A stretch of DNA of 64,000 nucleotides, taken from assembly GCF_056746865.1 (NCBI RefSeq), contig NZ_CM163382.1. One strand, written 5' to 3'. The translations under genes were made by a program, and so were the position numbers. Shown piece after piece: positions 1-61,659 of this stretch (position 1 is the stretch's first letter; each line of letters begins with the position of its first letter). A model generated the notes under the pieces. That model was not told the DNA's origin. It made no database searches and saw nothing but the letters and a program-made list of their open reading frames with translations.

Positions 1-233
1 TCCCGTTCAATGTCAGCTTCTGAAATGACTGCGTTGAGGTTATAGCGGTTGATAGCAATGGCAGTTCGCTCGTCCAACGGCGTGTTATCTGGTTTCCCTT
101 TCAGATTGCCGGTGATCAATAAATTCAGCGGCAATTCGATATCAGCAGCCACCCCATCAACTTTTGGTGTATACCGAACGCTGATTCTTTCTTTCGGCGC
201 GACACTGCCGCCATTGTTGTTCATTTTGCTCAT
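1..233 (-). CDS. tssB: T6SS sheath small subunit TssB, N-terminal part; gene runs off the window start
   Basis: Manual minus-strand translation from ATG at 233..231 gives MSKMNNNGGSVAPKERISVRYTPKVDGVAADIELPLNLLITGNLKGKPDNTPLDERTAIAINRYNLNAVISEADIER with no stop, the TssB/VipA-type N-terminus (GSVAPKERI...ELPL). Absent from the ORF track because it is cut by the window edge. Confidence 0.75.
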   Translation of the reverse strand, partial: MSKMNNNGGSVAPKERISVRYTPKVDGVAADIELPLNLLITGNLKGKPDNTPLDERTAIAINRYNLNAVISEADIER

Positions 234-359
234 AAAAATGTTCCCGTTCAGGCCATGAGCACAGCATTTTCGTACTGCATAAAAATACCGAAGATACCGT
301 TTCAGTGGCAGTTAGATAATGTAACCTTCCTTCTGTTGTGATCGGTATTCTACTCATGA

Positions 360-935
360 AATAAAATATTAAAAGAACTATTTATATTTTAGAAAGAGAT
401 GTATTCTTCCTTGCTAATATATTATAGTGAAATAAATTTTGGTATTTATAGACTTGATGAATATGATTTTACGGTCAATAAAATGCCATAATATATTGAT
501 TTATATGTATTTATTAAATTTATTAATAAGTTTTATGTATGGTTTTATCAATTGATTAATTGCTGGCAATACATCATAAGGAATTCCTTTAAGGAATGTC
601 TTAATTGCGTGCTGGAACGATGGCTGAGTAAGTGTCGTAATAATTTGTTTTTGACGCGGCTGTGGATTTTTATGGGGGGAAGGATACGTTATGGATAATT
701 CTGCTGTTGAAGTTGATATATTTTTAGCTTATGTGACCGTGTTCTGAAATTGACTAAAAATATATTTAAACACCATAAAAGAGTTTTTCAGTAGGTGCTA
801 ATTACGTGTGCCTGTAACTCGAATAAAGAAAAGGGTGTGGTTCCTGATGTGAGCCGCATCACACTCTAACCCGTCGGGGATTAACGACGGGTTGTTCGTA
901 AAACAGCAGTTGATAATTTCACAAGGAGTTCATAA
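360..935. promoter_or_regulatory. AT-rich divergent intergenic region between tssB and hcp; likely carries both promoters
   Basis: About 575 bp with no credible ORF and strongly AT-rich sequence between divergently oriented T6SS genes. Confidence 0.3.
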
Positions 936-1454
936 ATGCCAACCCCATGTTACATTTCAATTACAGGTCAGACCCAGGGGAACATCACTGCCGGTGCTTT
1001 CACCGCAGATTCTGTCGGCAATATCTACGTGCAGGGACACGAAGATGAAATGCTGGTGCAGGAGTTTCTGCATAACGTTACTGTTCCAACCGATCCACAG
1101 TCTGGTCAACCTTCCGGGCAGCGCGCGCACAAACCGTTCATTTTCACCGTGGCGCTGAACAAAGCCGTTCCGCTGCTGTACAACGCGCTGGCCTCCGGTG
1201 AAATGCTGCCGAAAGTGGAGCTGCACTGGTGGCGTACTTCAGTTGAAGGCAAGCAGGAGCACTACTTCACCACACGTCTTACTGACGCGACGATTGTGGA
1301 CATGAACCTGCACATGCCGCACTGCCAGGACCCTGCACAGCGTGAGTTTACGCAATTGCTCGCAGTATCACTGGCATACCGTAAGGTTGAGTGGGAGCAC
1401 ATCAAATCCGGTACTTCTGGTGCCGATGACTGGCGTGCACCGCTGGAAGCATAA
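936..1454 (+). CDS. hcp: T6SS tube protein Hcp (TssD)
   Basis: 172-aa ORF MPTPCYISITGQTQGNITAGAF...HWWRTSVEGKQEHYFTTRLTDATIVDM, a typical Hcp1-family sequence. Confidence 0.9.
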   Translation: MPTPCYISITGQTQGNITAGAFTADSVGNIYVQGHEDEMLVQEFLHNVTVPTDPQSGQPSGQRAHKPFIFTVALNKAVPLLYNALASGEMLPKVELHWWRTSVEGKQEHYFTTRLTDATIVDMNLHMPHCQDPAQREFTQLLAVSLAYRKVEWEHIKSGTSGADDWRAPLEA

Positions 1455-1462
1455 ATCTGAGT

Positions 1463-1500
1463 CAACAACATCCTGCCTTCGTGCAGGATGTTGTTTTTGT
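1463..1500 (+). terminator. Rho-independent terminator after hcp
   Basis: Inverted repeat caacaacatcctgc / gcaggatgttgtt followed by a T-run. Confidence 0.6.
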
Positions 1501-1674
1501 ACGTGTAAAAAATGAGTGTCAGTAAGGAGTTACGCTTTCATGAGGGAGATGGCGGATGCCGGAAACCCGGGCGGTAGCGTACCTGAAAATGTAAAGATGA
1601 GTGTAACGCTGCACTGGCACCCTTTGCTGCATGGTAAGAATCATTTGGTCCGTGAATAAATCAGGGAGGTCATT

Positions 1675-3633
1675 ATGTCCTTAAAAGGTCTGCGCTTTAC
1701 GCTGGAGATTGACGGCCAGGAGCCGGACACCTTTGCAGTGGTGCATTTCAGGTTAATCCAGAACCAGTCTTATCCGTTTGTGATGAGTGTGGATGTTGCC
1801 AGCGACTCTTTTATGCAGACGGCGGAGATGCTGCTGGAGAAGAAGGCGACGCTGACCATCTGGCAGGGCGTCATCCCGCTGCGTTATGTCACCGGCGTGG
1901 TGGCGGGTTTTGGCATGCAGGAGAACAATGGCTGGCAGATGCGTTATCACCTGCGTATTGAGCCGCCGTTATGGCGGTGCGGGCTGCGGCAGAACTTCCG
2001 TATCTTCCAGCAGCAGGATATCCGGACGATATCGGCCACGTTACTGAACGAGAACGGCGTCACGGAGTGGACACCGCTGTTTTATGAGGACCATCCGGCG
2101 CGGGAGTTCTGTGTCCAGTACGGGGAAAGCGACCTGGCGTTTCTGGCGCGGTTGTGGGCGGAGGAGGGAATTTTCTTCTTTGAGCGGTTTGCGGCGGACA
2201 GTCCGGAGCAGAAGCTGACGCTGTGCGACGATGTGGCGGGGCTGTCACAGGCGGGAGAGCTTCCGTTTAACCCGGACACATCGGCAGGAGCGGAGACAGA
2301 GTGTGTCAGTATGTTCCGTTATGAGGCGTATGTCCGCCCGTCGTCGGTGCAGAGCCAGGATTACACGTTTAAGGTGCCGGACTGGCCGGGGATGTATGAG
2401 CAGCAGGGTGAGAACCTGAACGGACAGCTGGAGCAGTATGAGATATTTGATTATCCGGGAAGGTTCAAGGATGAACAGCACGGCAAGGATTTCACGCTGT
2501 ACCAGATGGAGAGCCTGCGCAGTGATGCGGAAAAGGCCACAGGGCAGAGTAATTCACCGAAGCTGTGGCCGGGAACGCGGTTTACGCTGACGGGGCATCC
2601 GCAGAAGATGCTGAACCGTGAATGGCAGGTGGTACAGAGTATTCTGTCAGGGGACCAGCCGCAGGCGCTGCACGGCAGCCAGGGGAGAGGAACCACGCTG
2701 GGAAATCAGTTAGAGGTGATACCGGCGGACCGGACGTGGCGTCCACGGCTGCAAAGCAAACCGAAGGTGGACGGGCCACAGAGCGCCATTGTCACCGGTC
2801 CTGCGGGAGAGGAAATCTTCTGCGACGAACACGGACGTGTGCGAGTGCAGTTTCACTGGGACAGGTATAACCCGGCAACGGAGGCGAGTTCATGCTGGGT
2901 GAGGGTGTCGCAGGCGTGGGCGGGGCCGGGATTTGGTAACCTGGCGATACCGCGCATCGGCCAGGAAGTGATTGTAGACTTCCTGAACGGCGACCCGGAC
3001 CAGCCGATAATCATGGGGCGGACGTACCATGAGGACAACCGTTCGCCGGGGAGTCTGCCGGGGACGAAGACGCAGATGACGATACGGTCGAAGACCTATA
3101 AAGGAAGCGGCTTTAATGAACTGCGGTTCGAGGACGCGACGGACAAGGAAGAAATTTACCTGCACGCACAGAAAAATATGCAAGTCGTTGTGCTGAACAG
3201 CAAGGATAAGCGGGTCAACTATGACCGGACGGTCAGCATCGGGCATGATGAATCCCTGGTGGTGGCAAATGACCGGAAAGTGACGGTTGAAGGTAAACAG
3301 GACCATAAAACCACCAAAGACCATGTCAGCCTGACAGAGGGCAATCAGGGGCTGGAGGTGAAAGGCGATCTGGCACAGAAAATAAGCGGCGCGCTGGGTA
3401 TCAGCGTACAGGGCGATATTGTTTTACAGAGCGACAGCAAAATCAGTCTGCGGGTGGGCGGTTCATTTGTGGTGATCCATTCCGGCGGCGTGGATATTAA
3501 GGGCGCGAAAATCAATCTTAACGGCGGAGGCAGTCCGGGAGACGTGATCCTGCCGATGCGCCCGGTGATCCTGAAAGCCGCAGCCGGAAGCGGGACAATG
3601 TTTGTGGCGCACTGCCCGAAGGAGGATAAGTGA
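1675..3633 (+). CDS. vgrG: T6SS spike protein VgrG (TssI)
   Basis: 652-aa ORF with the VgrG N-terminal region (LRFTLEIDGQEPDTFAVVHF...) and gp27/gp5-like content; directly downstream of hcp. Confidence 0.9.
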   Translation: MSLKGLRFTLEIDGQEPDTFAVVHFRLIQNQSYPFVMSVDVASDSFMQTAEMLLEKKATLTIWQGVIPLRYVTGVVAGFGMQENNGWQMRYHLRIEPPLWRCGLRQNFRIFQQQDIRTISATLLNENGVTEWTPLFYEDHPAREFCVQYGESDLAFLARLWAEEGIFFFERFAADSPEQKLTLCDDVAGLSQAGELPFNPDTSAGAETECVSMFRYEAYVRPSSVQSQDYTFKVPDWPGMYEQQGENLNGQLEQYEIFDYPGRFKDEQHGKDFTLYQMESLRSDAEKATGQSNSPKLWPGTRFTLTGHPQKMLNREWQVVQSILSGDQPQALHGSQGRGTTLGNQLEVIPADRTWRPRLQSKPKVDGPQSAIVTGPAGEEIFCDEHGRVRVQFHWDRYNPATEASSCWVRVSQAWAGPGFGNLAIPRIGQEVIVDFLNGDPDQPIIMGRTYHEDNRSPGSLPGTKTQMTIRSKTYKGSGFNELRFEDATDKEEIYLHAQKNMQVVVLNSKDKRVNYDRTVSIGHDESLVVANDRKVTVEGKQDHKTTKDHVSLTEGNQGLEVKGDLAQKISGALGISVQGDIVLQSDSKISLRVGGSFVVIHSGGVDIKGAKINLNGGGSPGDVILPMRPVILKAAAGSGTMFVAHCPKEDK

Positions 3634-4472
3634 TGGAAACGGCACCCGTGCAGTACGCCATTGTGGATGGCGCTGTGGAGGAAGGATTGCTGGATTTTCT
3701 GAACGAGGTGAATCCCCCGCACTGTTGTCTGTATGCAGAACCCATACAACTGGATCTGGTCGCGCTAGCCCCCTATCTCGTGGAAGTCGTTCCGGAGGTT
3801 GAAGCATGGCTGAGTGTTAAGGCGTCGCCATGGGGAATATATCTGACTTCTGAGTCATCCATGCGTGAGCTACAGCAACACTTCAGACGTTATCTGTGGG
3901 TTAGGATCCCCGAACAGGAGAAACCTGTTCTCATGCGATTTTATGATCCCCGGAATATATGGGTATTAGTGGAAGTTCTGACCCCCCGCCAGCGTCTTTC
4001 TTTTATCAGTCCCGTCAGACAGCTAAGTACCCGTTATGGTGAAGAATGTCGTGAGGATAATTTTTCTTCCGTCCGTCCCGCAGAAACTATGAATATAAGG
4101 GCAGAACGGCCATCACAACTGACGCTGAGTTACAGACAATATAGCCAACTGGAACGAAAGGCACGGGATAATTATCTTGATATATTATCTGCATTTATCG
4201 AAGAAAATGTAGATAAAAACGGATGGGATGATTCATCAAAAGCTGAATCATCCCGAATTCTGGCAGAAGATTATTTCTCTTTTTGCCAGTCATTAAATAT
4301 AGCAGATGATCGTTCCGTCAGAACAATGACGCTTATATTACTGAAAAAAAATATAATCGATCTCAGATATATTCCGGATGACTGGTATGAACAACTCAGC
4401 AATCAGTCATACCCGGGACATATTCGGGTACATGAACTTGCACAACAGGAACTGGGATTTATCCCACAATAA
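3630..4472 (+). CDS. DUF4123-family T6SS effector adaptor (Tap/Tec-like)
   Basis: 280-aa ORF overlapping the vgrG stop (ATGA); N-terminal YAIVDGA motif typical of DUF4123 adaptors. Confidence 0.7.
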   Translation: MMETAPVQYAIVDGAVEEGLLDFLNEVNPPHCCLYAEPIQLDLVALAPYLVEVVPEVEAWLSVKASPWGIYLTSESSMRELQQHFRRYLWVRIPEQEKPVLMRFYDPRNIWVLVEVLTPRQRLSFISPVRQLSTRYGEECREDNFSSVRPAETMNIRAERPSQLTLSYRQYSQLERKARDNYLDILSAFIEENVDKNGWDDSSKAESSRILAEDYFSFCQSLNIADDRSVRTMTLILLKKNIIDLRYIPDDWYEQLSNQSYPGHIRVHELAQQELGFIPQ

Positions 4473-4493
4473 AAAGACAAACGGATAGATTAT

Positions 4494-6065
4494 ATGACAT
4501 CTCCATCTTCGACAGCCGGAAAGCCCTGTGTGGAATGCGGCATTCCTGATCCATGTATTTTTGATGTTATTAGTGATTTTCCAGAGGCCGGCGAGAAACA
4601 TTTCTGGTCAAAAGAAGGAGTGGCGCGTTTTAAGCTACTGGATGATGGTTCCGGATGTGATGGTATAATTACCATTACCTACCAGTGCGATAAAAGTGGA
4701 ACACATGAGGCATGGTTAGAGGAAGAATCAGAAAATAATCATAAGATACTGCAACCTTTCGGAATACCTAATAAGGTCACTTTGGATGATAACTTGTCTG
4801 AAGGTGAAATAATTGCTATGGGTACATTTCGAGTACCATGGGATTATTTGGGGGCAATATCCTCTCCACTTAAGAATCATTATGAACCTGCCCATTATTC
4901 AGTCAGAATTGACAGTTGTTACGAATGTGGCAATTATGTTGAAATTGATGTTTATCCTACAGTGGAAATTAGGTTTACTACAGGGTTCAGCTATGAGATT
5001 TCGTCATCAAAACAGACGAGAACAGTAAAAGAGCGGCGTGACGAAAGAATAAAAGCCAGGGACGCAATGGAGAACACCAAGCCCAGGGATAAAAATAAAC
5101 TCCGTAGCGGCTGGACAAATACCACTGCTGAGTTTGAGTGGATAAACAAGACTTCCCTGACTGTCGATTTTGGCGTAAAAATAGCTAATGTTGAACACAC
5201 AAGTGAATATGAAAAAGAGATAAAAAAACTTCGACAAACAAAGCAACTGGAACAGATAGGAAGAATTGACTCTCTGGTCAAGAATGTCAATAAATATTTT
5301 GCGCCAGATCCTGACAATAATAATGGTACGCGCAAATATGCATTGTTCAGTGCAAAAATAGAACCCGTTAAACTGGGTATATCGTATGCCTATCAATATA
5401 CCGATATCCAGGATGGCCCCTGTCATTTTTATGGTTTGTTTGGTGCCCCATTTTTTGAAGCGTCGTTCAGATTCGATATTATTTCATTTATATGTGCATA
5501 TTGTAAAGTCGAGTCATTGGTCAACAGATGTCGTGAATATCTCCGTAAAAACGGAGCCAGTGTTGAATGCTATATCGAGATTTCAGCGGAGATTAATCTT
5601 GATCTTGGCGCAGTATACGCTGAAAAGGATAAAAAATGGGAGTTTAATGTAAAGGAAAGTAACATCAAGCTCGGTTTAAAAGGTGTGGTGAGTGCGACGT
5701 TTGAGGCGAATGTTTTTGTTGTACAACTGACCGCCGAAGCGACTGCCTCTATAGAAGCGAAAGCTGGATTTGGATTTGATTCACATGATGACGGACTGGA
5801 CCTAGCATTATTTCATGACGGCATTAAAGGGAAGTTTGAATTTAAGATTGATGTGTCTCATGGTGAAGTTGATGAAAAAGGAAAGGGGAAGGAAAAGAGC
5901 GAAAAACCTGAGAAGAAAGATACCGTTGAGTGGCAGTTATGTGATCCTATGGAGGTAAAGGATTCACCATTACGGGTTAATTTATACGGTAAAGAACGCA
6001 CTGTGGAGAAAAAAGTAACACCGCCGAAGCCAGTGACAACGTGGACGATAGGTATGGATTATTAA
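4494..6065 (+). CDS. Candidate T6SS cargo effector, activity unknown
   Basis: 523-aa AT-rich ORF immediately after the DUF4123 adaptor. I recognise no catalytic motif; Lys/Glu-rich C-terminus. Confidence 0.45.
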   Translation: MTSPSSTAGKPCVECGIPDPCIFDVISDFPEAGEKHFWSKEGVARFKLLDDGSGCDGIITITYQCDKSGTHEAWLEEESENNHKILQPFGIPNKVTLDDNLSEGEIIAMGTFRVPWDYLGAISSPLKNHYEPAHYSVRIDSCYECGNYVEIDVYPTVEIRFTTGFSYEISSSKQTRTVKERRDERIKARDAMENTKPRDKNKLRSGWTNTTAEFEWINKTSLTVDFGVKIANVEHTSEYEKEIKKLRQTKQLEQIGRIDSLVKNVNKYFAPDPDNNNGTRKYALFSAKIEPVKLGISYAYQYTDIQDGPCHFYGLFGAPFFEASFRFDIISFICAYCKVESLVNRCREYLRKNGASVECYIEISAEINLDLGAVYAEKDKKWEFNVKESNIKLGLKGVVSATFEANVFVVQLTAEATASIEAKAGFGFDSHDDGLDLALFHDGIKGKFEFKIDVSHGEVDEKGKGKEKSEKPEKKDTVEWQLCDPMEVKDSPLRVNLYGKERTVEKKVTPPKPVTTWTIGMDY

Positions 6066-6131
6066 GTGATATTACAGAAATTAAAAGTGAACAGTATAAT
6101 GAGTATTTTCCCCTTTTGAGAGAGAATAATT

Positions 6132-7142
6132 ATGAAGGCAAAACATTTAATATCGGTTATTTTACTGTCAGGAGTTGTTATGGGAACTGGATTTTGCTCT
6201 AACGATAACCAGCAAAAAATTCGCAGTAAGTTTAATATTGAAGAGTCATATTGTGCCATTAAGACTAATGGCGTCCTCGGGTTCAGTAACCGAAGAAGTG
6301 CCTGGCGGGCAAATGGTGATTCAACCGGGGCCATATCCAGCACCAATGCCATGATGCTGATGGCGAATGGAGAAAATGAAATCAGTCTGGAGATTGGGGC
6401 ATTAGGATGGTTTTCTGACAAGCCTGCCAGTATGGAAGAACGGGGGCGTTTTTTTCCAAAAGCAGGATGCAGCCTGGATTTGGTTCGTTTTATTAAACAG
6501 GAGGAAACGCTGCTTTCTTCAATAAAAGTGACCATCAACCAGCAGGGCATACCTGAAGCCCGGCCAGACAGCGTGCATCCCGTTATCCGGAAAGAGATTT
6601 TGGCTGAGCAGGCGGAGCCAGGATTTATTGATCCAGATTATTTTGATGAAACCTATTTCCCGAAAGGGATGAAGGTGTATCAGTTCACTCAAAAAGTTAC
6701 CGTGACAGGGCTTCCTGAATGGGCCTGGACGCGGGCAACCCCCTATACCGGAAGCGACGAGCAGTTACGGAAGTTAAAAGCCGCCTATACCGAAATGGCA
6801 AGCATCATCAGTAGCCGGGACAGGGCACGTCTGAAAGCTTATAACAAAGAGGCGCTGAAGGCATGGTCAGCCACAACCGGTGACTCTGAGGATGACATAT
6901 TACTCTCACTCTTCTCAAAAGATAATGTGGAGGGAGGGAAAGCCAGAATGCAGCCCATCAGGTGGGACGATTATGCCGTCCGGGTTATGAATGGTGGACG
7001 TATGGTGCAGCTATATAATAAATCGAAACCAATATATTCCCCACTGACTTACCGTTTTACAGATGAAAGTGGTGAAGAGCGTATGGGGTATTACGCTCCG
7101 GTATTTTCGCTGATTGATGGTCAGTTTATCCCTGTTACTTGA
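6132..7142 (+). CDS. Candidate cognate immunity protein, secreted or lipoprotein
   Basis: 336-aa ORF with N-terminal signal peptide MKAKHLISVILLSGVVMGTGFC (lipobox-like Cys); position directly after the candidate effector. Confidence 0.4.
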   Translation: MKAKHLISVILLSGVVMGTGFCSNDNQQKIRSKFNIEESYCAIKTNGVLGFSNRRSAWRANGDSTGAISSTNAMMLMANGENEISLEIGALGWFSDKPASMEERGRFFPKAGCSLDLVRFIKQEETLLSSIKVTINQQGIPEARPDSVHPVIRKEILAEQAEPGFIDPDYFDETYFPKGMKVYQFTQKVTVTGLPEWAWTRATPYTGSDEQLRKLKAAYTEMASIISSRDRARLKAYNKEALKAWSATTGDSEDDILLSLFSKDNVEGGKARMQPIRWDDYAVRVMNGGRMVQLYNKSKPIYSPLTYRFTDESGEERMGYYAPVFSLIDGQFIPVT

Positions 7143-7172
7143 TTAACCTGTTGGGCTACAAATCAGGATGTC

Positions 7173-7216
7173 CGGTAAGGTGATTATTACTGAGTTAAGC
7201 ACCTTACCGTTTTTTA
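7173..7216 (+). terminator. Rho-independent terminator closing the hcp–vgrG–effector unit
   Basis: Stem cggtaaggtg / caccttaccg followed by TTTTTT. Confidence 0.5.
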
Positions 7217-8379
7217 AATTTTTTGTCGCTGATATTCCAGACAGGAAAACAATATGCCTTTAGCTGCCAGATTAAACGACAAAGGTACCGGCACAGGGAA
7301 AGATCACGTAACGCTGCTTTTTTGTACTAAATAATTCGCATTTTATGTTTAAAATTTGAGATATTCCTCATTACCTGAGGCTGTTTTTTATTACTTATAC
7401 ATGATCAAATACTCCTTACATAATTAAGGGGAACAAAATGGAACTTAAAAATTGATGGAACATATTTCTGTTATTCCCGATTACAGACAAGCCTGGAAAG
7501 TGGAACATAAATTGTCGGATATTCTACTGTTGACTATTTGTGCCGTTATTTCGGGTGCAGAAGGTTGGGAAGATATAGAGGATTTTGGGGAAACACATCT
7601 CGATTTTTTAAAACAATACGGTGATTTTGAAAATGGTATTCCTGTTCACGATACCATCGCCAGAGTTGTATCCTGTATCAGTCCTGCAAAATTTCACGAG
7701 TGCTTTATTAACTGGATGCGAGATTGCCATACTTCAGATGATAAAGACGTCATCGCAATTGATGGAAAAACGCTCCGGCACTCTTATGACAAGAGTCGCC
7801 GCAGGGGAGCGATTCATGTCATTAGTGCGTTCTCAACAATGCACAGCCTGGTCATCGGACAGATCAAGACGGATGAGAAAACCAATGAGATTACAGCTAT
7901 CCCAGAACTTCTTAACATGCTGGATATTAAAGGAAAAATCATCACAACTGATGCGATGGGTTGCCAGAAAGATATTGCAGAGAAGATACAAAAACAGGGC
8001 GGTGATTATTTATTCGCTGTAAAAGGAAATCAGGGGCGGCTTAATAAAGCCTTTGAGGAAAAATTCCCACTGAAAGAATTAAATAATCCAGAGCATGACA
8101 GTTACGCAATGAGTGAAAAGAGTCACGGCAGAGAAGAAATCCGTCTTCATATTGTTTGCGATGTCCCTGATGAACTTATTGATTTCACGTTTGAATGGAA
8201 AGGACTGAAGAAATTATGCGTGGCAGTCTCCTTTCGGTCCATAATAGCAGAACAAAAGAAAGAGCCAGAAATGACGGTCAGATATTATATCAGTTCTGCT
8301 GATTTAACCGCAGAGAAGTTCGCCACAGCAATCCGAAACCACTGGCACGTGGAGAATAAGCTGCACTGGCGTCTGGACG

Positions 8380-10270
8380 GTGTGCCGCAGGAACACAAGA
8401 TAGCTGCATAAGGATACGCAGTTAGCTTTTGTATAAGCTCATAAAGAGATGGTGGAAGGCCCACCGGGATCGGCTGTCGGAAGCAGATTCCAAACCACTT
8501 CATGCTGCTGTGGTAAAGAGCCATGGTAGTGAGCGATGAAGTAAAGCGTGAGTGAAAACTCAGCAGGTAAGATACTCATGAGACGAGTGAACCCGAACCC
8601 ATGTTGACGCGTCGTAAACCAGAGACTGACATCAAAACCGAAGGGGCGTCCAGCCTTCGGGATAAGTCTGCGAGTGAATTCCGAATGCTGCGCAGACGGT
8701 GTCCGGCGTAAAGTGGGCGTGACGGAGTATCAGGCTCTTCCTGGGAACTGCGGGAACCTGTCGTTGTGATGATAAGGGAGAAATGCAAGTCACTGAATTG
8801 GCGAGCATGAAAGTACCGATGCACAGCACAGGGACGGAGCCGTTCGTAGTAGTGATGAAGCTTCTGTAATGGAGGTGGAGCGAAGGGGCGGCATCAGACA
8901 GTCTTTGGACAGTGTTCAACTGAACATGTTCAGGAGGAGACAATGACAAAGACAAAAGCGTTTAACATTGATAAGTCACTGGTGGTCAGCGCGTACAGGC
9001 GAGTGAAGACCAGTGCAGGCGCGGCGGGAATTGATAAGCAATCGCTGGCGGACTTTGATAAACGGTTAGTTGATAATCTGTACAAAATCTGGAACCGACT
9101 TTCTTCAGGAAGTTATTTCCCACCGGCAGTGAAAGCGGTGGCAATTCCGAAGAAATTGGGTGGAGAGAGAATTCTGGGTATCCCGACAGTCAGCGATCGT
9201 ATCGCGCAGACGGTGGTAAAACTGGCCTTTGAGCCACAGGTTGAGCCACATTTTCTGGCAGACTCTTACGGCTACAGACCGAATAAATCGGCACTGGATG
9301 CTATAGGGGTAACGCGTAAGCGTTGCTGGTATTACGACTGGGTACTGGAATTTGACATCAAAGGGCTGTTCGATAACATCCCGCACGAACTGATAATGAA
9401 AGCCGTGGACAAACACAATCCGGCCCGGTGGGTAAAATTGTATATACAGCGGTGGCTGACAGCGCCGATGGTGATGTCAGACGGAGAAGTCAGAGCACGA
9501 ACAATGGGAACGCCGCAGGGAGGTGTCATAAGTCCGTTGCTGGCAAACCTGTTCATGCATTATGTGTTTGATAAATGGCTGGCAAAATATTATCCGAAAG
9601 TGCCGTGGTATCGATATGCTGATGATGGCATTTTGCATTGTCACAGCGAAGCAGAAGCGACTGAAATGCGAGAAGTATTACGCAAAAGATTTAGCGAATG
9701 CGGACTGGAAATGCATCCGGAGAAAACGCGAGTTATCTACTGCAAAGATGGAAGCCGGAAGGGTGATTATGAACATACCATGTTCGACTTTCTGGGGTAC
9801 ACATTCAGGCGACGCGTAGTAAAGAACGTTAAGCGAAACAGTCTGTTTGTAAGTTTTACCCCCGCAGCGAGCAAATCAGCGCTAAAGGCAATGCGTCGGG
9901 AAATCAAAGCGACAGGGATAAGGAAAAGAGTGGATTTAAGCATTGAGCAGATAGCGAAATGGATAAATCCAAAACTGAATGGCTGGATAAATTATTACGG
10001 GCGATATACCTGTTCGGAATTATACAGCGTGTTCAGATATATCAATAAAGCACTGGTGAGGTGGGGGCGTAAGAAATATAAAATGCTCAGCCGATACAAG
10101 ACAAGAGCCTCAAAATTTCTGGAAGAAATGGCGAAGCGAAGTCCACAGTTGTTTGCCCACTGGCGTCTGAAGATGAGAGGCGGACTTGTTTGATGGGAGC
10201 GGTATGAGCCGAGAGGTTCACGTACCGTTCTGCGAGAGGCTGCGGGGGAGGTTCCTGCGGCCTACTCACC
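8380..10270 (+). mobile_element. Group II intron (bacterial, with RT/maturase ORF)
   Basis: Boundaries from aligning interrupted copy 1 to uninterrupted copy 2: shared …cgtctggacg | intron starts GTGTGCCG … ends …cctactcacc | tggtaatgaatg resumes. Domain V-like GAGCCG…CGTACCGTTC lies just after the RT stop. Confidence 0.7.
8943..10193 (+). CDS. Group II intron-encoded reverse transcriptase/maturase
   Basis: 416-aa ORF with RT motifs (…RYADDG… YADD box) and a maturase X-domain motif (NGWINYYG). Confidence 0.85.
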
Positions 10271-10493
10271 TGGTAATGAATGAAGACGACTGCAAAATAA
10301 GAAGAGGAAATGCAGCAGAATTATTTTCAGGGATACGGCACATCGCTATTAATATTTTGACGAATGATAAGGTATTCAAGGCAGGGTTAAGACGTAAGAT
10401 GCGAAAAGCAGCCATGGACAGAAACTATCTGGCGTCAGTCCTTGCGGGGTGCGGGCTTTCGTAATCTTTCCCTGGATGTGAAAAGCAGCTGCG

Positions 10494-11779
10494 GACAGGG
10501 AAAGATCATCAGAAGTACACTTTTTGTACTAAACAATTCGCATTTTATGTTTAAAAATTGAGATATTCCTCATTACCTGAAGCTGTTTTTTATTGCTTAT
10601 ACATGATCAAATACTCCTTACATAATTAAGGAGAACAAAATGGAACTTAAAAAATTGATGGAGCATATTTCTATTATCCCCGATTACAGACAAGCCTGGA
10701 AAGTGGAACATAAATTATCGGATATTCTACTGTTGACTATTTGTGCCGTTATTTCTGGTGCAGAAGGTTGGGAAGATATAGAGGATTTTGGGGAAACACA
10801 TCTCGATTTTTTGAAGCAATATGGTGATTTTGATAATGGTATTCCTGTTCACGATACCATTGCCAGAGTTGTATCCTGTATCAGTCCTGCAAAATTTCAC
10901 GAGTGCTTTATTAACTGGATGCGTGACTGCCATTCTTCAGATGATAAAGACGTCATTGCAATTGATGGAAAAACGCTCCGACACTCTTATGACAAGAGTC
11001 GCCGCAGGGGAGCGATTCATGTCATTAGTGCGTTCTCAACAATGCACAGCCTGGTCATCGGACAGATCAGGACGGATGAGAAATCTAATGAGATTACAGC
11101 TATCCCTGAACTTATTAACATGCTGGATATTAAAGGAAAAATCATCACAACTGATGCGATGGGTTGCCAGAAAGATATTGCAGAGAAGATACAAAAACAG
11201 GGAGGTGATTATTTATTCGCTGTAAAAGGAAACCAGGGGCGGCTAAATAAAGCCTTCGAGGAAAAATTTCTGCTGAAAGAATTAAATAATCCAGAGCATG
11301 ACAGTTACGCAATTAGTGAAAAGAGTCACGGCAGAGAAGAAATCCGTCTTCACATTGTTTGCGATGTCCCTGATGAACTTATTGATTTCACGTTTGAATG
11401 GAAAGGTCTGAAGAAATTATGCGTGGCAGTCTCCTTTCGGTCAATAATAGCAGAACAAAAGAAAGAGCCCGAAATGACGGTCAGATATTATATCAGTTCT
11501 GCTGATTTAACCGCAGAGAAGTTCGCCACAGCAATCCGAAACCACTGGCACGTGGAGAATAAGCTGCACTGGCGTCTGGACGTGGTAATGAATGAAGACG
11601 ACTGCAAAATAAGAAGAGGAAACGCAGCAGAATTATTTTCAGGGATACGGCACATTGCTATTAATATTTTGACGAATGATAAGGTATTCAAGGCAGGGTT
11701 AAGACGTAAGATGCGAAAAGCAGCCATGGACAGAAACTACCTGGCGTCAGTCCTTGCGGGGAGCGGGCTTTCGTAATCT
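10494..11779 (+). mobile_element. H-repeat (ISAs1-family) element copy 2, intact
   Basis: Left IR acagggaaagatca and right IR tcttgccctg; direct orientation, about 20 bp after copy 1. Confidence 0.75.
10640..11776 (+). CDS. H-repeat-associated ISAs1-family transposase
   Basis: 378-aa [35 protein letters not shown]… uninterrupted. Confidence 0.85.
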
Positions 11780-11895
11780 TGCCCTGGTACAGTAAACAAA
11801 CGAAAGTTGTTATTTCAATGGTCAGGGCAAGAGCATGAAGTGTTTACTACACACTATGCTCTTGTCCTGGAGTCAGGTCTTGTTTGGAGGGATAA

Positions 11896-12399
11896 ATGGT
11901 AGATATTGTCGAGGCCGATAAAACGGATATTTATTTCATTCAGGAGAGTGTTTATGGCAAAATCGGGTTGCCAGCTTTTGGTAATACAATAGGACCATCC
12001 GCACAGCAAGTTGTTAAAAAGGTATTCGCTGTCGTTAAAGAACGAGATAAGACACATGCAAAACAGAGATTATTGTTGGAATATAATGGTAACAAACTCT
12101 GGATGAATGCTATTGATGGCAGTGAAGCTATCCTACCAACAGAATTTTCTAAGCGATACGAACTTTCATTATTTAATACTACTAATTTTGGAGAAGATCC
12201 TTTTCCTGATGTTAATTTATATAATAATATGAAATCAAGTTTTTTTGTAAGGTTTGGTGGAACATCCCATCCCGAGGCTTGGGCTATTTATAATGCAAGT
12301 ACGAAAGAGGTTAAATATATAGAAACTGCAAGAGAAATTGATAAAATATTCAGTGATTTTAACTTGAGTGGTACATTGCCAATTCACATTGGTCGATGA
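11896..12399 (+). CDS. Hypothetical protein, AT-rich cargo
   Basis: 167-aa ORF in a low-GC segment between H-repeat elements; no recognisable motif. Confidence 0.35.
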   Translation: MVDIVEADKTDIYFIQESVYGKIGLPAFGNTIGPSAQQVVKKVFAVVKERDKTHAKQRLLLEYNGNKLWMNAIDGSEAILPTEFSKRYELSLFNTTNFGEDPFPDVNLYNNMKSSFFVRFGGTSHPEAWAIYNASTKEVKYIETAREIDKIFSDFNLSGTLPIHIGR

Positions 12400-12465
12400 T
12401 TTTTTAAATTGTGTGATTAAATAATTGAACATTAATGATGATTTATAGCATTATTATTCTATAAC

Positions 12466-12978
12466 ATGAATAAACGGATTGAATGTGTTATGTTAAAAAT
12501 AAGTTTATACGTAATAATATTGTTATTTTCCTTTCAGATTAGTGCAGCCATTACTAGCAAGGAAAGTGAGGTTGTTTCACCATTATTAATGGATGTTAAT
12601 TCTTCACTAACAATGGAAAATATTTCTGAATTATCCACATCATCGGAACCATCGCAACAGGGGGTATTTCCTGTAATATGTACTCGACTTCATCCTGGCT
12701 CCGTAATGAAACGCCAGTTATTAACCGGCTGGGGGCCTGTTTTTATAATTGGTGATGATCCTTTTTCTCTGCGCTGGATGAGTGAACATCTGGAGATCCT
12801 TAAATCGCTAAATGCCCTTGGTTTGGTTGTTAATGTTGAATCAGTAGAACGAATGGAGGTATTACAGCAGCGGGCTGATGGGTTATTGTTATTGCCAGTT
12901 ATCTGCGATAATTTCGTGCAAACTCTGCAATTAAATGCTTATCCGGTATTAATCACAGAGATGGAAATATCACAATGA
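12466..12978 (+). CDS. Hypothetical secreted/membrane protein
   Basis: 170-aa ORF with a hydrophobic N-terminal segment (ISLYVIILLFSFQISAAITS); low GC. Confidence 0.35.
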   Translation: MNKRIECVMLKISLYVIILLFSFQISAAITSKESEVVSPLLMDVNSSLTMENISELSTSSEPSQQGVFPVICTRLHPGSVMKRQLLTGWGPVFIIGDDPFSLRWMSEHLEILKSLNALGLVVNVESVERMEVLQQRADGLLLLPVICDNFVQTLQLNAYPVLITEMEISQ

Positions 12979-12994
12979 TTAATAACATAATTAC

Positions 12995-13215
12995 TGCAAA
13001 TAATATCGTAATTTTGAAAATGGTAATTCTGTTCACGGCACCATAATTAGAGTTATGTCTTGTATCCGTTCAGTATAATTTCACGAATGCTTTATTAACT
13101 GGATGCGAGATTGCCATTCATCAAATGATAAAGACGTCATCGCAATTGATGGAAAAGCGCTTCCACACTCCTATGATAAAAGTGGTCGCAGGGGAGCGGG
13201 CTTTCGTAGTCTTAG
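12995..13215 (+). pseudogene. Internally deleted H-repeat transposase remnant (position equivalent to K-12 yafF)
   Basis: Matches the ENGIPVH…[10 protein letters not shown]…SRRRGA segment, then jumps to the element 3' end (…ggagcgggctttcgtagtct…); junction at a short ggggagcg microhomology. Confidence 0.6.
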
Positions 13216-13249
13216 CCCGACTCTCCCCGGCCCTAAACACAACACCCAC

Positions 13250-14020
13250 TCACCACAACCTAAACTCATCCGCATCCCGCCATGCCGGAAACTTTTCTCT
13301 ATATTCCCGCAATGCCGCCATCGACAGCTCCGCATCAATGCGCGTTGCCTGATGCGCGTCGGCGGTGGCGATAATCTCGCCCTGTGGATTAATCACCCGG
13401 CTGTCACCGCGATAATGGCAGCCGTTGCCATCGCTGCCGACGCGATTGCATCCCGCCACATACGCTTGATTCTCAATCGCGCGGGCCGTCAGCAATGCCT
13501 GCCAGTGCAGAGAGCGCGGAGCCGGCCAGTTGGCGACGTACAGGGCGAGGTCGTAATCGTTGAGATTGCGCGACCACACAGGAAAACGTAAGTCGTAGCA
13601 CACCAGCGGCAAAATACGCCAGCCGCGCCATTCCACAATCACTCGCGCATTGCCCGCTTTATAATGCAGATGCTCATCTGCCATGCGGAACAGATGACGC
13701 TTATCATAAAAATGTACCGTGCCGCCTGGCTCAACCAGCAAAAAGCGGTTAACCGAACCAGACTCCGTTTGTAATGCAACACTGCCTGCAATCAGCGCAT
13801 TGCACTGCTGCGCTTTGGCTGTCATCCAGTTCACTACGTCATCTTGTGCTAGCGACGAAGCTGCCGCTTCCATGGCAAAGCCGCTGGTAAACATCTCCGG
13901 TAGAACGATCACATCGCGTCCGGTAATATCTTCCAGTTGACGATCAAAATGACGCAGGTTGGCAGGACCATCCATCCACACCAGTGGTTGCTGCAAAAGC
14001 GTAATCTTCAAACCAGGCAC
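13250..14020 (-). CDS. yafV: Carbon–nitrogen hydrolase family protein (omega-amidase) YafV
   Basis: ORF 13250..14029; probable GTG start giving [22 protein letters not shown]…, 256 aa, as in K-12 YafV. Confidence 0.85.
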
Positions 14021-19636: not shown

Positions 19637-19927
19637 ACTGCTTATTCCTTGATAAAACGGTTACACACGCCAGGACGGCAAAATGGATCCCAAATCGGAA
19701 TAGTCTGGATTTGGAAGGCTCACATTATCACCAAAAGAGTTTTACGCAAGCCTGTCGGCGCAGGGTTTACAAATTTAGCACAGGGGCAGTTTTCATTAGT
19801 CCGAAAAGCGCATGTATCATTTATTTCCTAAGATTATGAAACCTCAATAGTAATATGCAAATAAGCAATTAATAATCCCGTTTACTCCTCCGGTCTTTTA
19901 AAATTCTCCCCTTCATTCAGCCGGTTT

Positions 19928-20686
19928 ATGTCCTTCATGTCTTCGTTCTTTCACGGCAGATTTCTGCATCCAGGCGTGTTTTCGTTATGCGTTTTGCTCC
20001 CTTTACTCGCCAGCGCCACCACATCACATATCTCTTTCAGCTACGCCGCCCGCCAGCGGATGCAAAACCGTGCGCGTTTATTAAAACAGTACCAAACCCA
20101 TCTGAAAAAACAGGCCAGCTATATTGTGGAAGGCAATGCCGAAAGCAGAAAGGCGCTGCGCCAGCACAACCGCGAACAGATAAAACAGCATCCAGAATGG
20201 TTTCCTGCGCCGCTCAAGGCGAGTGACAGACGCTGGCAGGCGCTGGCGGAGAACAACCATTTCTTAAGCAGCGACCATCTGCACAACATCACCGAAGTGG
20301 CGATTCACCGCCTGGAGCAGCAGCTTGGTAAGCCTTACGTCTGGGGCGGCACGCGGCCCGATCAAGGCTTCGACTGTAGCGGGTTGGTTTTTTATGCCTA
20401 CAACAAGATCCTCGAGGCGAAGCTCCCGCGCACGGCCAATGAGATGTATCACTACCATCGGGCAACGATTGTGGCGAATAACGACCTGCGCCGGGGAGAT
20501 TTGCTGTTTTTCCATATTCACAGCCGTGAGATTGCCGATCATATGGGCGTGTATCTGGGAGACGGTCAGTTTATCGAGTCGCCGCGCACCGGGGAAACCA
20601 TTCGGGTAAGTCGGTTAGCTGAACCTTTCTGGCAGGATCATTTTTTAGGCGCGCGCAGGATTTTGACGGAAGAGACGATTTTGTAG
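19928..20686 (+). CDS. yafL: NlpC/P60-family peptidoglycan endopeptidase YafL
   Basis: 252-aa ORF with signal peptide and NlpC/P60 signature (…GFDCSGLVFYAY…H…). Confidence 0.8.
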   Translation: MSFMSSFFHGRFLHPGVFSLCVLLPLLASATTSHISFSYAARQRMQNRARLLKQYQTHLKKQASYIVEGNAESRKALRQHNREQIKQHPEWFPAPLKASDRRWQALAENNHFLSSDHLHNITEVAIHRLEQQLGKPYVWGGTRPDQGFDCSGLVFYAYNKILEAKLPRTANEMYHYHRATIVANNDLRRGDLLFFHIHSREIADHMGVYLGDGQFIESPRTGETIRVSRLAEPFWQDHFLGARRILTEETIL

Positions 20687-21510: not shown

Positions 21511-23050
<1,540 letters not shown>

Positions 23051-23059
23051 CAAAGGCCA

Positions 23060-25153
23060 TCAACTCAACGCCCCCATAATCTTCAACTCCAGCTCATCCG
23101 GCACTTCGTTATACGACAGCACATGCAGACCCGGCGCAAACAACCTTGCATAACGCGCCAGCAAAGGACGCAGCTGCGGCGGCACCAGCAGCACAGGGGC
23201 TTTCCCCGCTGCTTTCATCTGCTCCTTCACCTGCGGCATCGTACTCTGGAACTGGTTGAGCATATTCGGGTCAACCGGCACGCTGTCGAGCATCACTTTG
23301 CCGGCCTGTTGCGCCTGATTCACCACATTGGTCAGCAGATTTTCCAGCTCATTATTCAGCGTATACACCGTCAGCTCCTGTTTGCGAACGAACGGATGGG
23401 TAATGCTGCGCCGCAGCGCCAGGCGCACATCGGCCGCCAGCAGAATATGATCTTTGGTCAATGTGCTACTGGCGACCAGCACAGTGGCGATGGTGACGAT
23501 ATCGCGCAGGGAAACGCCTTCGGTCAGTAATGCACGGTACACTTTCAGCAACTGGCTGTAATTGAGCGCTGCGCTCAAATCTTCCGCCAGTCGCGGTGCC
23601 ATCGACGACAAACGATTATGCAACTGCGTAATATCGTCATAGTTAAATAAATCAGGAATATAGCTGCGCACAATCTTATTCACATGGGTGGCAATCACGC
23701 TGGCGCTGTCGATCACCTGATACCCCATATTCAGCGCCTTCGCTTTCTGCGCGGGCTGGATCCAGGTCACCGGCATCCCGTACGCCGGGTCGTTCCCCAG
23801 CACGCCGTCAATCTCGCCGTAGGTTTCGCTGGAGGGCAGGGCCATCAGTTTATCCGCCGGAATATCCGCTTCATCAGCCTTAATGCCATTGATGAAAATG
23901 GCGTACTGGCTGGGCTTGAGGCGGAAGTTTTCCCGAATACGGATCTCCGGCAGCAGCACGCCGTTGCCGTCGGAAATCACCTGCCGCACGCCGCGAATCC
24001 GCTGGGTGAGCGGGTTACCTTGGGCTTTATCGACTAGCGCCACCAGCTTGTAGCCGAGGCTTAAGCTGATGGGCTCGATCAGCGGAATGGTTTCCCAACT
24101 GACCTGTTGCTCGCTGGTTTCGGTGATGGTTCGGGTCAGCGTTTCGAGGCTTTTCTCCTCCGCCTCCGCCGCCTGCGGGCGTTTGCTCATCCGCCAGCCG
24201 GTAAAGCCAAGCAGGGCGCTGAACAGCAAAAATGGCAGATGCGGCATCCCCGGCACCACCGCCAGCACAAACATGATCCCGGTGGCGGTGTAGAGCACCG
24301 ACGGGCTTGCCAGCAGCTGGTGGCGCACGTCATGGGCGATATCGCCGTTGTCGCTGACGCGGGTGACGATAATTGCCGCTGCGGTGGAGAGCAGCAGGGA
24401 CGGGATCTGCGCCACCAGCCCGTCGCCGATGGTCATCAGCACATACTGCTGGAAGGCGGCGTCGGCGCTCAGGTTGTATTTGAAGATGCCGATACAGACG
24501 CCGCCGATCAGGTTGATCGCCAGAATCATCATCCCGGCGATGGCGTCCCCGCGCACAAACTTCGATGCCCCGTCCATCGCGCCGTAGAAATCGGCCTCGC
24601 TGGCAACATCTTTACGCCGGGTTTGCGCCTGCGCCTGGTTGATCAACCCAGCGTTAAGATCGGCGTCAATCGCCATCTGTTTACCGGGCATCGCGTCTAA
24701 GGTAAAGCGGGCAGAAACCTCGGAAATACGCTCGGCCCCTTTGGTGACGACGATAAAGTTGATGATCATCAGGATGATAAACACCACAAAGCCGACGACA
24801 AAGTTGCCGCCAATCACCACCTGACCAAATGACTCAATTACCTTACCCGCCGCGCCCGCGCCGAGATGCCCGTGCAGCAACACCACGCGCGTAGAAGCAA
24901 CGTTGAGCGTCAGGCGCATTAAGGTGGTGATCAGCAAAATGGTCGGGAACAGGCTGAATTCCAGCGGCCTTTTCGCTGACACCGCCACCAGCAGTACCAT
25001 CACCGCCAGCACAATGTTGAAGGTGAACAGAATATCCAGCAGCGCAGGCGGCAGCGGCAAAATAACCATCGCCAGAATACACAGGATCACCAGCGGCACG
25101 CCGAGATTGCCGCCGCGCAGTAGCGCGAGGAACGATTTAGTTGTTTTCGCCAT
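23060..25153 (-). CDS. lfhA: Flag-2 flagellar export apparatus protein FlhA homolog
   Basis: 697-aa ORF with FlhA N-terminal TM region and C-terminal cytoplasmic domain. Confidence 0.9.
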   Translation of the reverse strand: MAKTTKSFLALLRGGNLGVPLVILCILAMVILPLPPALLDILFTFNIVLAVMVLLVAVSAKRPLEFSLFPTILLITTLMRLTLNVASTRVVLLHGHLGAGAAGKVIESFGQVVIGGNFVVGFVVFIILMIINFIVVTKGAERISEVSARFTLDAMPGKQMAIDADLNAGLINQAQAQTRRKDVASEADFYGAMDGASKFVRGDAIAGMMILAINLIGGVCIGIFKYNLSADAAFQQYVLMTIGDGLVAQIPSLLLSTAAAIIVTRVSDNGDIAHDVRHQLLASPSVLYTATGIMFVLAVVPGMPHLPFLLFSALLGFTGWRMSKRPQAAEAEEKSLETLTRTITETSEQQVSWETIPLIEPISLSLGYKLVALVDKAQGNPLTQRIRGVRQVISDGNGVLLPEIRIRENFRLKPSQYAIFINGIKADEADIPADKLMALPSSETYGEIDGVLGNDPAYGMPVTWIQPAQKAKALNMGYQVIDSASVIATHVNKIVRSYIPDLFNYDDITQLHNRLSSMAPRLAEDLSAALNYSQLLKVYRALLTEGVSLRDIVTIATVLVASSTLTKDHILLAADVRLALRRSITHPFVRKQELTVYTLNNELENLLTNVVNQAQQAGKVMLDSVPVDPNMLNQFQSTMPQVKEQMKAAGKAPVLLVPPQLRPLLARYARLFAPGLHVLSYNEVPDELELKIMGALS

Positions 25154-41955: not shown

Positions 41956-41971
41956 TGGCACGGCGATTGCT
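41956..41971 (+). promoter_or_regulatory. Sigma-54 (-24/-12) promoter upstream of lfgB
   Basis: TGGCAC GGCGA TTGCT, exact TGGCAC-N5-TTGC match, about 37 bp upstream of the lfgB ATG. Confidence 0.7.
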
Positions 41972-60735: not shown

Positions 60736-61659
60736 ATGAGAAAGACGGGCAACCGCCGCGAGCGTGGGGCAAAAACCACCATCGTCCGGCGGCAGATCAA
60801 AAAAAATCATGCCGGGCATCACGGCGGGGCGTGGAAGGTGGCGTTCGCCGACTTTACTTTGGCAATGATGGCGCTATTTATGACGCTGTGGATTGTCAAC
60901 AGCGTCAGTAAATCCGAGCGTGAAAGCATTATCGCCGCGCTGCACGGGCAGTCGATTTTTAACGGTGGCGGGCTGTCGCCGTTAAATAAAATCAGACCGT
61001 CTCATCCGCCAAAACCTGCCACCGTGGCGGTGCCGGAAGAGACGGAGAAAAAAGCGCATGACGTCAACGAGAAAACGGCGCTGCTGAAGAAGAAATCCGC
61101 TACTGAGCTTGGCGAGCTGGCAACCAGTATCAACACCATTGCCCGTGATGCGCATATGGAAGCGAATCTGGAGATGGAGATTGTTCCCCAGGGACTGCGC
61201 GTGCTGATTAAAGATGACCAGAACCGCAATATGTTTGAACGCGGCAGCGCGCAGATTATGCCGTTCTTTAAAACTTTGCTGGTGGAGTTAGCACCGGTTT
61301 TTGATTCGCTCGACAATAAGATCATCATCACCGGGCATACCGATGCGATGGCCTACAAAAACAATATCTACAACAACTGGAACCTTTCGGGCGATCGCGC
61401 GCTTTCAGCTCGTCGGGTGCTGGAAGAGGCCGGAATGCCGGAAGATAAAGTGATGCAGGTAAGTGCAATGGCGGACCAGATGCTGCTGGATGCCAAAAAT
61501 CCGCAAAGCGCGGGCAACCGGCGCATTGAGATTATGGTGCTGACCAAAAGTGCGTCCGATACGCTGTATCAATACTTTGGTCAGCATGGGGATAAAGTGG
61601 TGCAACCGCTGGTGCAAAAGCTGGATAAGCAGCAGGTGCTTTCGCAGCGAACGCGTTAA
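60736..61659 (+). CDS. lafU: Flagellar motor stator protein MotB homolog (OmpA-like C-terminus)
   Basis: Start MRKTGNRRER… within ORF 60703..61659; TM/plug region (…FADFTLAMMALFMTLWIV…) and peptidoglycan-binding motif (…ITGHTDA…NW.LS..RA…). Confidence 0.85.
   Translation: MRKTGNRRERGAKTTIVRRQIKKNHAGHHGGAWKVAFADFTLAMMALFMTLWIVNSVSKSERESIIAALHGQSIFNGGGLSPLNKIRPSHPPKPATVAVPEETEKKAHDVNEKTALLKKKSATELGELATSINTIARDAHMEANLEMEIVPQGLRVLIKDDQNRNMFERGSAQIMPFFKTLLVELAPVFDSLDNKIIITGHTDAMAYKNNIYNNWNLSGDRALSARRVLEEAGMPEDKVMQVSAMADQMLLDAKNPQSAGNRRIEIMVLTKSASDTLYQYFGQHGDKVVQPLVQKLDKQQVLSQRTR

Follow-up and report, generated by a model that had tools for sequence, protein, structure and literature searches.

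The 64,000-nucleotide stretch of contig NZ_CM163382.1 (RefSeq assembly GCF_056746865.1) analysed here, referred to as the window, opens inside a gene cluster for a type VI secretion system (T6SS). With a probability of about 0.93, positions 1–3633 are the place where two divergent operons meet in the chromosomal Escherichia coli T6SS2 island, a Vibrio cholerae-like system (T6SS-i1) that lies between aspV–yafT and yafV in the B2/extraintestinal pathogenic E. coli (ExPEC) lineage. In E. coli nomenclature, T6SS2 corresponds to subclass i1 (PMC12282107), and both the 37-kb cluster of enterohaemorrhagic E. coli (EHEC) EDL933 (PMC5363993) and pathogenicity island I of strain LF82 (PMC2941450) are located at aspV. 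The aspV T6SS2 island is already known and has been studied experimentally, and nothing in positions 1–3633 is surprising to a specialist. Its main use is as a landmark, which locates the window at the aspV hot spot in an E. coli of B2/ExPEC type with a complete T6SS2 (i1). T6SS2 has been linked to interbacterial competition and to virulence in avian pathogenic E. coli (APEC), neonatal meningitis E. coli (NMEC) and EHEC. The less-studied part of the locus is an uncharacterised, putative DUF4123-dependent effector–immunity pair encoded just outside positions 1–3633. The features of the locus are listed in Table 1.

On the minus strand, the frame of positions 1–233 translates as MSKMNNNGGSVAPKERISVRYTPKVDG.../MSKMNNNGGSVAPKERISVRYTPKVDGVAADIELPLNLLITGNLKG..., which is the N-terminus of the sheath protein TssB. 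The translated fragment matches Pfam T6SS_VipA (3.8e-14) and TIGR03358 (1.3e-17). Its start codon, at 233–231, is also the start used by the Prokaryotic Genome Annotation Pipeline (PGAP) in genomes identical to the window, where the full gene encodes 167 aa and ends at this same start codon. The Pfam and TIGR family matches, whose scores lie far beyond chance, bear out the original prediction, made from the nucleotide sequence without database searches, of a partial minus-strand tssB and a plus-strand hcp–vgrG at the window start. Several complete E. coli chromosomes, among them that of FDAARGOS_1290, match positions 1–25000 with 100% identity, and strain 3347558 is 100% identical over window positions 1–21997. 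In both of these genomes, the genes that come after tssB on its strand are tssC, tssE, tssF, tssG, tagH, tssJ, tssK, icmH/dotU (tssL) and tssH (clpV), and the cluster continues with vasI, tssA, tssM, a VasL-domain gene (vasL) and a second hcp (hcp2A). Past the second hcp lie a yafT homologue, tRNA-Asp (aspV), dnaQ and rnhA. Ten further core genes (tssA, C, E, F, G, H, J, K, L and M) fall outside the window; in the identical genomes they are contiguous and intact. In those genomes the structural genes are therefore found upstream, as had been predicted, and extension through the identical genomes recovers tssC, the rest of the cluster and the aspV tRNA.

The window itself displays only 233 bp of tssB, and E. 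coli is known to carry orphan vgrG islands, for example between yncG and yddH in strain Nissle 1917. These two observations would fit an isolated tssB fragment beside an orphan hcp–vgrG islet with no core cluster upstream, an outcome that the original prediction had itself raised as the one to look for. Both 100%-identical genomes examined instead carry the full cluster up to yafT–aspV–dnaQ. Furthermore, the AT-rich spacer between tssB and hcp occurs in 552 of 5426 complete E. coli genomes (91.5–100% identical) as one copy per genome, and tssB and tssC adjoin it in both spacer loci for which annotation was inspected (strain 3347558 and APEC O1). Because the core cluster lies upstream of tssB in the identical genomes, the isolated-fragment explanation is so improbable that it can be set aside in favour of a complete T6SS2 island. 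In the window lineage, tssB and tssC are separated by a gap of 22 bp; O157-lineage strain 9000 carries an extra ORF for a 74-aa hypothetical protein between these genes (locus L004, 7545–7769), which the window lineage lacks.

Assignment to subclass i1, which answers the subtype question left open by the original prediction, draws on the closest structurally solved relatives, the gene order and the published T6SS2 primers. TssB, TssC and Hcp are each nearest to the sheath and tube proteins of V. cholerae among solved relatives. The tssB product matches V. cholerae VipA at 1e-45 and HsiB1 at 3e-6, and TssC matches VipB at 2e-233 (779 bits) and Pseudomonas aeruginosa TssC1 with 352 bits. Similarly, Hcp matches V. 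cholerae Hcp at 9.6e-86 and Hcp1 of the Sci-1 system of enteroaggregative E. coli (EAEC) at 2e-21. By best hit, the sheath and tube proteins thus side with the i1 reference (V. cholerae) and not with i2 (EAEC Sci-1) or i3 (P. aeruginosa H1). The gene order, with tagH, vasI and vasL, is likewise V. cholerae-like. Four published APEC T6SS2 primers map to the window with 0–2 mismatches: the vipA reverse transcription (RT)-PCR primer at 69–87 on the minus strand (one mismatch), primer Phcp2B-F at 726–748 (two mismatches), and the hcp2B and vgrG RT primers at 1198–1217 and 3065–3085 (both exact). As these primers map there, the hcp and vgrG genes of the window are hcp2B and vgrG2 in APEC naming. 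T6SS1 is also common among B2 strains (PMC2941450, PMC12282107), and the island might on that ground have been T6SS1, the Sci-1-like system of subclass i2 that usually lies at metV. The Hcp comparison, the gene order, the position at aspV and not metV, and the matches of T6SS2-specific primers all argue against T6SS1, which is left with a negligible probability, and for T6SS2.

Approximately 174 complete genomes carry the locus with at least 99% conservation. Among the 5426 complete genomes, an hcp allele lineage at least 95% identical to that of the window is found in 551 genomes, which are of B2/ExPEC type and include APEC O1 and IMT5155; the Hcp protein accession, WP_001142963.1, is shared with APEC O1. 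A second allele lineage, 80–90% identical, is found in 2240 genomes, including O157.

The closest described systems are the T6SS2 loci of APEC and NMEC (strains XM/DE719, APEC O1 and RS218), which share with the window the site from aspV–yafT to yafV, the gene order, the divergent layout and the right end. In these strains, a main operon running from vipA2 to hcp2A faces a divergent operon of hcp2B, vgrG2, a DUF2169 gene, xmtU and xmtV. The APEC cargo genes specify a DUF2169 adaptor, XmtU as a PAAR-like effector and XmtV as its immunity protein (PMC5874247), whereas the window encodes a DUF4123 adaptor, a 523-aa protein and a 336-aa protein. The window also differs from APEC in carrying two copies of the insertion sequence (IS) ISEc1, one of which is split by a group II intron. 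The aspV T6SS of EHEC O157:H7 EDL933 (z0243–z0275, described in the KatN paper) is the A/B1/E-lineage form of T6SS2. It resembles the window in its aspV anchor, the tssB-to-tssK order, the divergent and oppositely transcribed hcp–vgrG, and an AT-rich spacer of approximately 700 bp, and it is repressed by H-NS (PMC5363993). The EDL933 form differs in that its hcp has 83% nucleotide identity and its vgrG encodes 713 aa and is followed by genes for Rhs core proteins. The V. cholerae T6SS (VipA/VipB, Hcp and VgrG) belongs to the same i1 subclass and follows the same vgrG–DUF4123–effector–immunity logic, in which Tap-1/TEC loads TseL onto VgrG1. The VasH regulator of V. cholerae drives hcp from sigma-54 promoters. 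Unlike V. cholerae, the window has no sigma-54 motif in the spacer, the cluster in the identical genomes has no vasH, and the putative effector is unrelated to TseL.

The vgrG gene is chimeric. Its product, with Phage_GPD, Phage_base_V and Gp5_trimer_C domains, scores 597 bits against TIGR03361. A conserved core spans 1675 to approximately 3180, and a cargo-specific C-terminus is encoded by approximately 3181–3633. Window positions 1–3180 are 95% identical to APEC O1, after which similarity collapses at approximately residue 502, within the β-helix. The 3′ part of the gene (450 nt) is 94–99% identical to the 652-aa orphan vgrG of Nissle 1917. As all vgrG copies retain 93–99% identity across their first 1.5 kb, this segment may serve as a substrate for module exchange by homologous recombination, and the locus illustrates how the 5′ 1.5 kb of vgrG could act as a recombination handle for swapping effector modules. 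The same vgrG sequence is labelled a pseudogene in some PGAP records and an intact tssI/VgrG in others (annotation of NZ_CP071073.1 and NZ_CP070048.1), an inconsistency that is probably due to the recombinant C-terminus.

Several points weigh against reading positions 1–3633 as part of a complete and working T6SS2. At its first position the window is still 270 bp short of the end of tssB, and the completeness of the cluster rests on identical genomes and not on this molecule. The i1 assignment is a best-hit comparison combined with the literature, not a phylogeny. The segment required for CpxR-P binding in APEC reads GTGAC here and GTAAT in APEC, including APEC O1. Hcp secretion or contact-dependent killing has been shown for the APEC and EHEC homologues only (PMC5874247, PMC5363993). 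PGAP flags vgrG as 'incomplete, missing C-terminus' in several records, and no PAAR gene was found in window positions 1–13200, whereas the orphan module of Nissle and the module of APEC both contain such a gene.

The last two points would also fit a decaying or silent relic that no longer fires, with a truncated vgrG, no PAAR tip and permanent silencing by H-NS. Such a relic would likewise accord with the pseudogene label that PGAP gives vgrG in identical genomes, with the IS elements and group II intron that fill the right end of the island, and with K-12, which shows that the whole island can be lost at this site. In addition, expression of homologous clusters in vitro is very low (PMC5363993, PMC5874247). 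In identical genomes, nevertheless, every one of the 13 core genes is annotated as intact, the pseudogene flag on vgrG being the only one among them, and the conservation of the locus across genomes described above speaks against decay. At 652 aa, VgrG can be aligned end to end with short VgrGs of solved structure (7q5p, 645 aa; P. aeruginosa VgrG1, 643 aa), the alignment covering residues 39–623, and its length equals that of the orphan VgrG of Nissle, whose gene carries an intact annotation. On these two comparisons a truncated pseudogene is rejected, and the PGAP flag is accordingly read as an artefact of the chimeric tail. A PAAR gene could also lie elsewhere in the genome. A defunct locus is therefore considered unlikely, and an intact T6SS2 island remains the preferred interpretation.

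Downstream of the conserved vgrG core, the vgrG C-terminus, the DUF4123 gene and two co-directional ORFs travel as one block, and this module is present in 322 of the 5426 genomes. The ATG of the adaptor gene overlaps the vgrG stop codon (TGATG), so that vgrG and the adaptor gene are translationally coupled. The DUF4123 protein matches Tla1 weakly (4.5e-10, under the cutoff). For the 523-aa protein, sequence searches of Pfam, NCBIfam and the PDB returned nothing and none of the fold matches was meaningful; it fell into none of the recognised T6SS effector or toxin families. Its homologues form 37 clusters of 35–100% identity, all unnamed, from Escherichia, Salmonella, Citrobacter, Enterobacter, Buttiauxella, Rahnella, Pectobacterium, Dickeya and Klebsiella. 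The 336-aa protein similarly gave no family match in Pfam or NCBIfam and no match in the PDB. Its hydrophobic N-terminus reads MKAKHLISVILLSGVVMGTGF, and the pattern MKxKxLISVILLSG is conserved in the Nissle homologue, upstream of the PGAP start. This conserved hydrophobic N-terminus suggests a Sec signal peptide, a periplasmic immunity protein and an envelope target. The 523-aa and 336-aa proteins are probably an effector and its immunity protein. Whether they form an uncharacterised T6SS effector–immunity family restricted to Enterobacterales, loaded by DUF4123 onto a dedicated VgrG C-terminus and acting on the envelope, perhaps as a β-rich, membrane-inserting or pore-forming toxin, is an evenly balanced proposition.

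The proposed family sits inside the T6SS2 island and also forms an orphan island in sequence type 73 (ST73) strains, including the probiotic Nissle 1917. The Nissle/ST73 orphan module, between yncG and yddH, consists of genes for PAAR, VgrG (652 aa), DUF4123, effector and immunity proteins. Its VgrG has the same length as that of the window, and its adaptor, effector and immunity proteins are 94%, 76% and 84% identical, respectively. Unlike the module in the window, it lies elsewhere on the chromosome, has no core cluster attached and has a PAAR gene in front. The window and Nissle pairs have diverged at the sequence level and may represent distinct immunity groups. The pair, of which Nissle 1917 and other ST73 strains carry a diverged version, could matter for gut colonisation and strain competition. 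A literature search on DUF4123 modules in Nissle or E. coli T6SS2 returned nothing relevant. In Nissle 1917 (NZ_CP148105.1, 2591951–2611907; locus L006) and other ST73 strains, the yncG–yddH interval holds two tandem orphan PAAR–vgrG modules flanked by ISEc1 fragments. The first is the diverged homologue of the DUF4123 module of the window, and in the second, vgrG is followed by a peptidase M35 gene.

Experiments on the homologous loci of APEC and EHEC show that delivery of the downstream antibacterial effector depends on Hcp2B and VgrG2. It is proposed that a promoter in the 702-bp spacer would direct leftward transcription of the main operon, comprising tssB and tssC, the genes for the baseplate, membrane complex and ClpV, and hcp2A, and that rightward transcription would yield hcp2B–vgrG2 and the cargo genes. 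A hairpin after hcp would limit read-through and thereby yield Hcp in large excess over VgrG. Contraction of the TssB/TssC sheath would then expel the Hcp tube tipped by a VgrG trimer, whose module-specific C-terminus (residues approximately 503–652) would recruit the DUF4123 adaptor and thereby load the 523-aa effector. Sister cells would be shielded in the periplasm by the signal-peptide-bearing 336-aa protein. The cargo module may have been acquired by homologous recombination in the conserved 5′ 1.5 kb of vgrG, and would have replaced XmtU/XmtV.

Table 1. Features at the T6SS2 operon junction, in the adjoining cargo module and at the right end of the island (window coordinates).
Feature	Position	Strand	Remarks
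tssB (vipA2), 5′ part	1–233	−	First 77 of 167 codons; contractile sheath small subunit; cut by window start
Divergent control region	234–935		702 bp between tssB main operon and hcp–vgrG operon; presumed H-NS-silenced promoter region
Counterpart of Phcp2B segment	726–750	+	Needed for CpxR-P binding in APEC DE719; 2 substitutions here
Stem-loop in hcp leader	867–894	+	10-bp stem, 8-nt loop; AAGGAG ribosome-binding site (923–928) downstream
hcp (APEC hcp2B)	936–1454	+	Hcp tube protein, 172 aa; Pfam T6SS_HCP 1.5e-32; TIGR03344 209 bits
Hairpin	1464–1495	+	Perfect 13-bp stem and U-rich tail; starts 10 nt past hcp stop
vgrG (vgrG2/tssI)	1675–3633	+	652 aa; gp27-like, gp5 OB and β-helix domains
DUF4123 adaptor (Tap-1/TEC/Tla-type)	3633–4472	+	Pfam DUF4123 1.7e-25; PGAP start
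Putative cargo effector	4494–6065	+	523 aa; no known family; 40% GC
Putative immunity protein	6132–7142	+	336 aa; predicted N-terminal signal peptide; N-terminus kept in Nissle homologue
Island right end	7289–13198	+	Two ISEc1 copies, 167-aa ORF, PFL_4695-family protein, ISAs1 fragment
ISEc1 (ISEc1/ISAs1 H-repeat element), split	7289–10475		Group II intron (~8380–10267) inserted in transposase gene
ISEc1, intact	10492–11787		
167-aa ORF	11896–12399		No family
PFL_4695-family integrating-conjugative-element (ICE) protein	12490–12978		TIGR03765 1.9e-35
ISAs1 fragment	13004–13198		195 bp
yafV	13250–14020	−	First core-genome gene right of island; annotation of identical genomes

The spacer between the two operons has a GC content of 33%, falling to 28% in its core (358–830), compared with 52% for the whole window. 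The original prediction described a 575-bp AT-rich region at this position. Its AT-richness is upheld, and its length is corrected to 702 bp (234–935), since the tssB start codon lies at 233–231. A length of 575 bp would fit a count from approximately 360, the start of a 66-aa ORF (157–357) that runs out of frame over tssB and is probably spurious. The other coordinates in the original prediction are correct, and all three genes lie at the positions it gave. The remaining small ORFs in the spacer are short, of low complexity and unsupported. The spacer is approximately 92% identical to that of APEC O1, whereas in the O157 lineage only the ends near the genes align (224–407, 68%; 829–935, 80%).

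In APEC, transcription of the two operons runs in opposite directions, and both are repressed by H-NS and induced by duck serum; CpxR-P binds and activates the hcp2B promoter (PMC5874247, PMC6534853). The APEC deletion probe that fails to bind begins at TTGACTAAAAATATATTTAAAC, which corresponds to window positions 751–772. As two substitutions fall within the segment required for CpxR-P binding, CpxR control in the window lineage may differ from that in APEC, to judge from the sequence. A search allowing up to two mismatches found no sigma-54 motif anywhere in window positions 1–4927. A sigma-70 and terminator scan of positions 1–1750 gave 6 hits, compared with 3.3 ± 2.2 in shuffled sequences, and no promoter was assigned because these counts are no better than those of the shuffles. 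A search of window positions 1–14000 against Rfam gave group II intron domains alone at E ≤ 1, with none in the spacer or leaders.

Two conserved RNA hairpins frame hcp. The hcp leader (840–940) folds at −28.8 kcal/mol (z −2.3), and one pair of its stem changes from C–G to U–A in the O157 lineage, which is weak evidence as three sequences were aligned. The hairpin downstream of hcp folds at −20.3 kcal/mol (z −3.5), a value equalled by none of 200 shuffles, and its stem is kept in the O157 lineage despite two pairs altered on both sides. This downstream hairpin is likely to be a partial terminator or an RNA stabiliser that would favour a high Hcp:VgrG ratio.

The island measures approximately 32.9 kb from the yafT stop codon to window position ~13190, of which the right-hand 13.2 kb lie inside the window. 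In agreement with the original prediction, it ends in an H-repeat cluster just before yafV, formed by the two ISEc1 copies and the ISAs1 fragment. In the split ISEc1, the transposase halves lie at 7452–8411 and 10186–10464. The intron that separates them is marked by Rfam RF01999 (8451–8568), a domain V/VI match to RF00029 (10195–10270) and a reverse transcriptase/maturase ORF (8943–10193). The 167-aa ORF, the PFL_4695-family gene and the ISAs1 fragment also adjoin yafV in APEC O1, and this trio is therefore regarded as an old, fixed part of the island.

K-12 and the identical genomes are collinear through yafT (approximately 87% identical in DNA, 84% in protein), and collinearity returns from window position 13191 (97.6%). 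Between yafT and yafV, K-12 carries ykfM, yafU and yafF. The original prediction had listed yafT, ykfM, yafU and yafF as small remnants at this site, a description that suits yafF alone. K-12 positions 239098–239377 are 98.9% identical to the 3′ end of ISEc1 (window 11496–11775), which makes yafF a true relic. The yafT gene is intact in both lineages. For ykfM and yafU, neither blastn (word size 7) nor blastp detected similarity to hcp2A, vasL or the remainder of the island; on these comparisons, the two genes are alternative content at the site and not T6SS debris.

Further features of the window lie to the right of the island. At 19776–20009, the dinJ–yafQ toxin–antitoxin pair is absent; K-12 carries it between dpaA and yafL, an interval of approximately 840 bp in K-12 and 230 bp in the window. 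A full-length Flag-2 (lateral flagella; flhA, flhB and others) locus of approximately 38 kb occupies positions ~22800–60900, between rayT and lafU/dinB. At this site K-12 has only the lfhA and lafU pseudogenes, and homology to K-12 is lost at window position 24763 and returns at 60888. Inside the Flag-2 locus, positions 41956–41971 match the sigma-54 consensus perfectly (TGGCACGGCGATTGCT). At 21997/21998, strain 3347558 has an extra ISEc31 of approximately 2.3 kb with its own group II intron, which is absent from the window and provides a useful strain marker.

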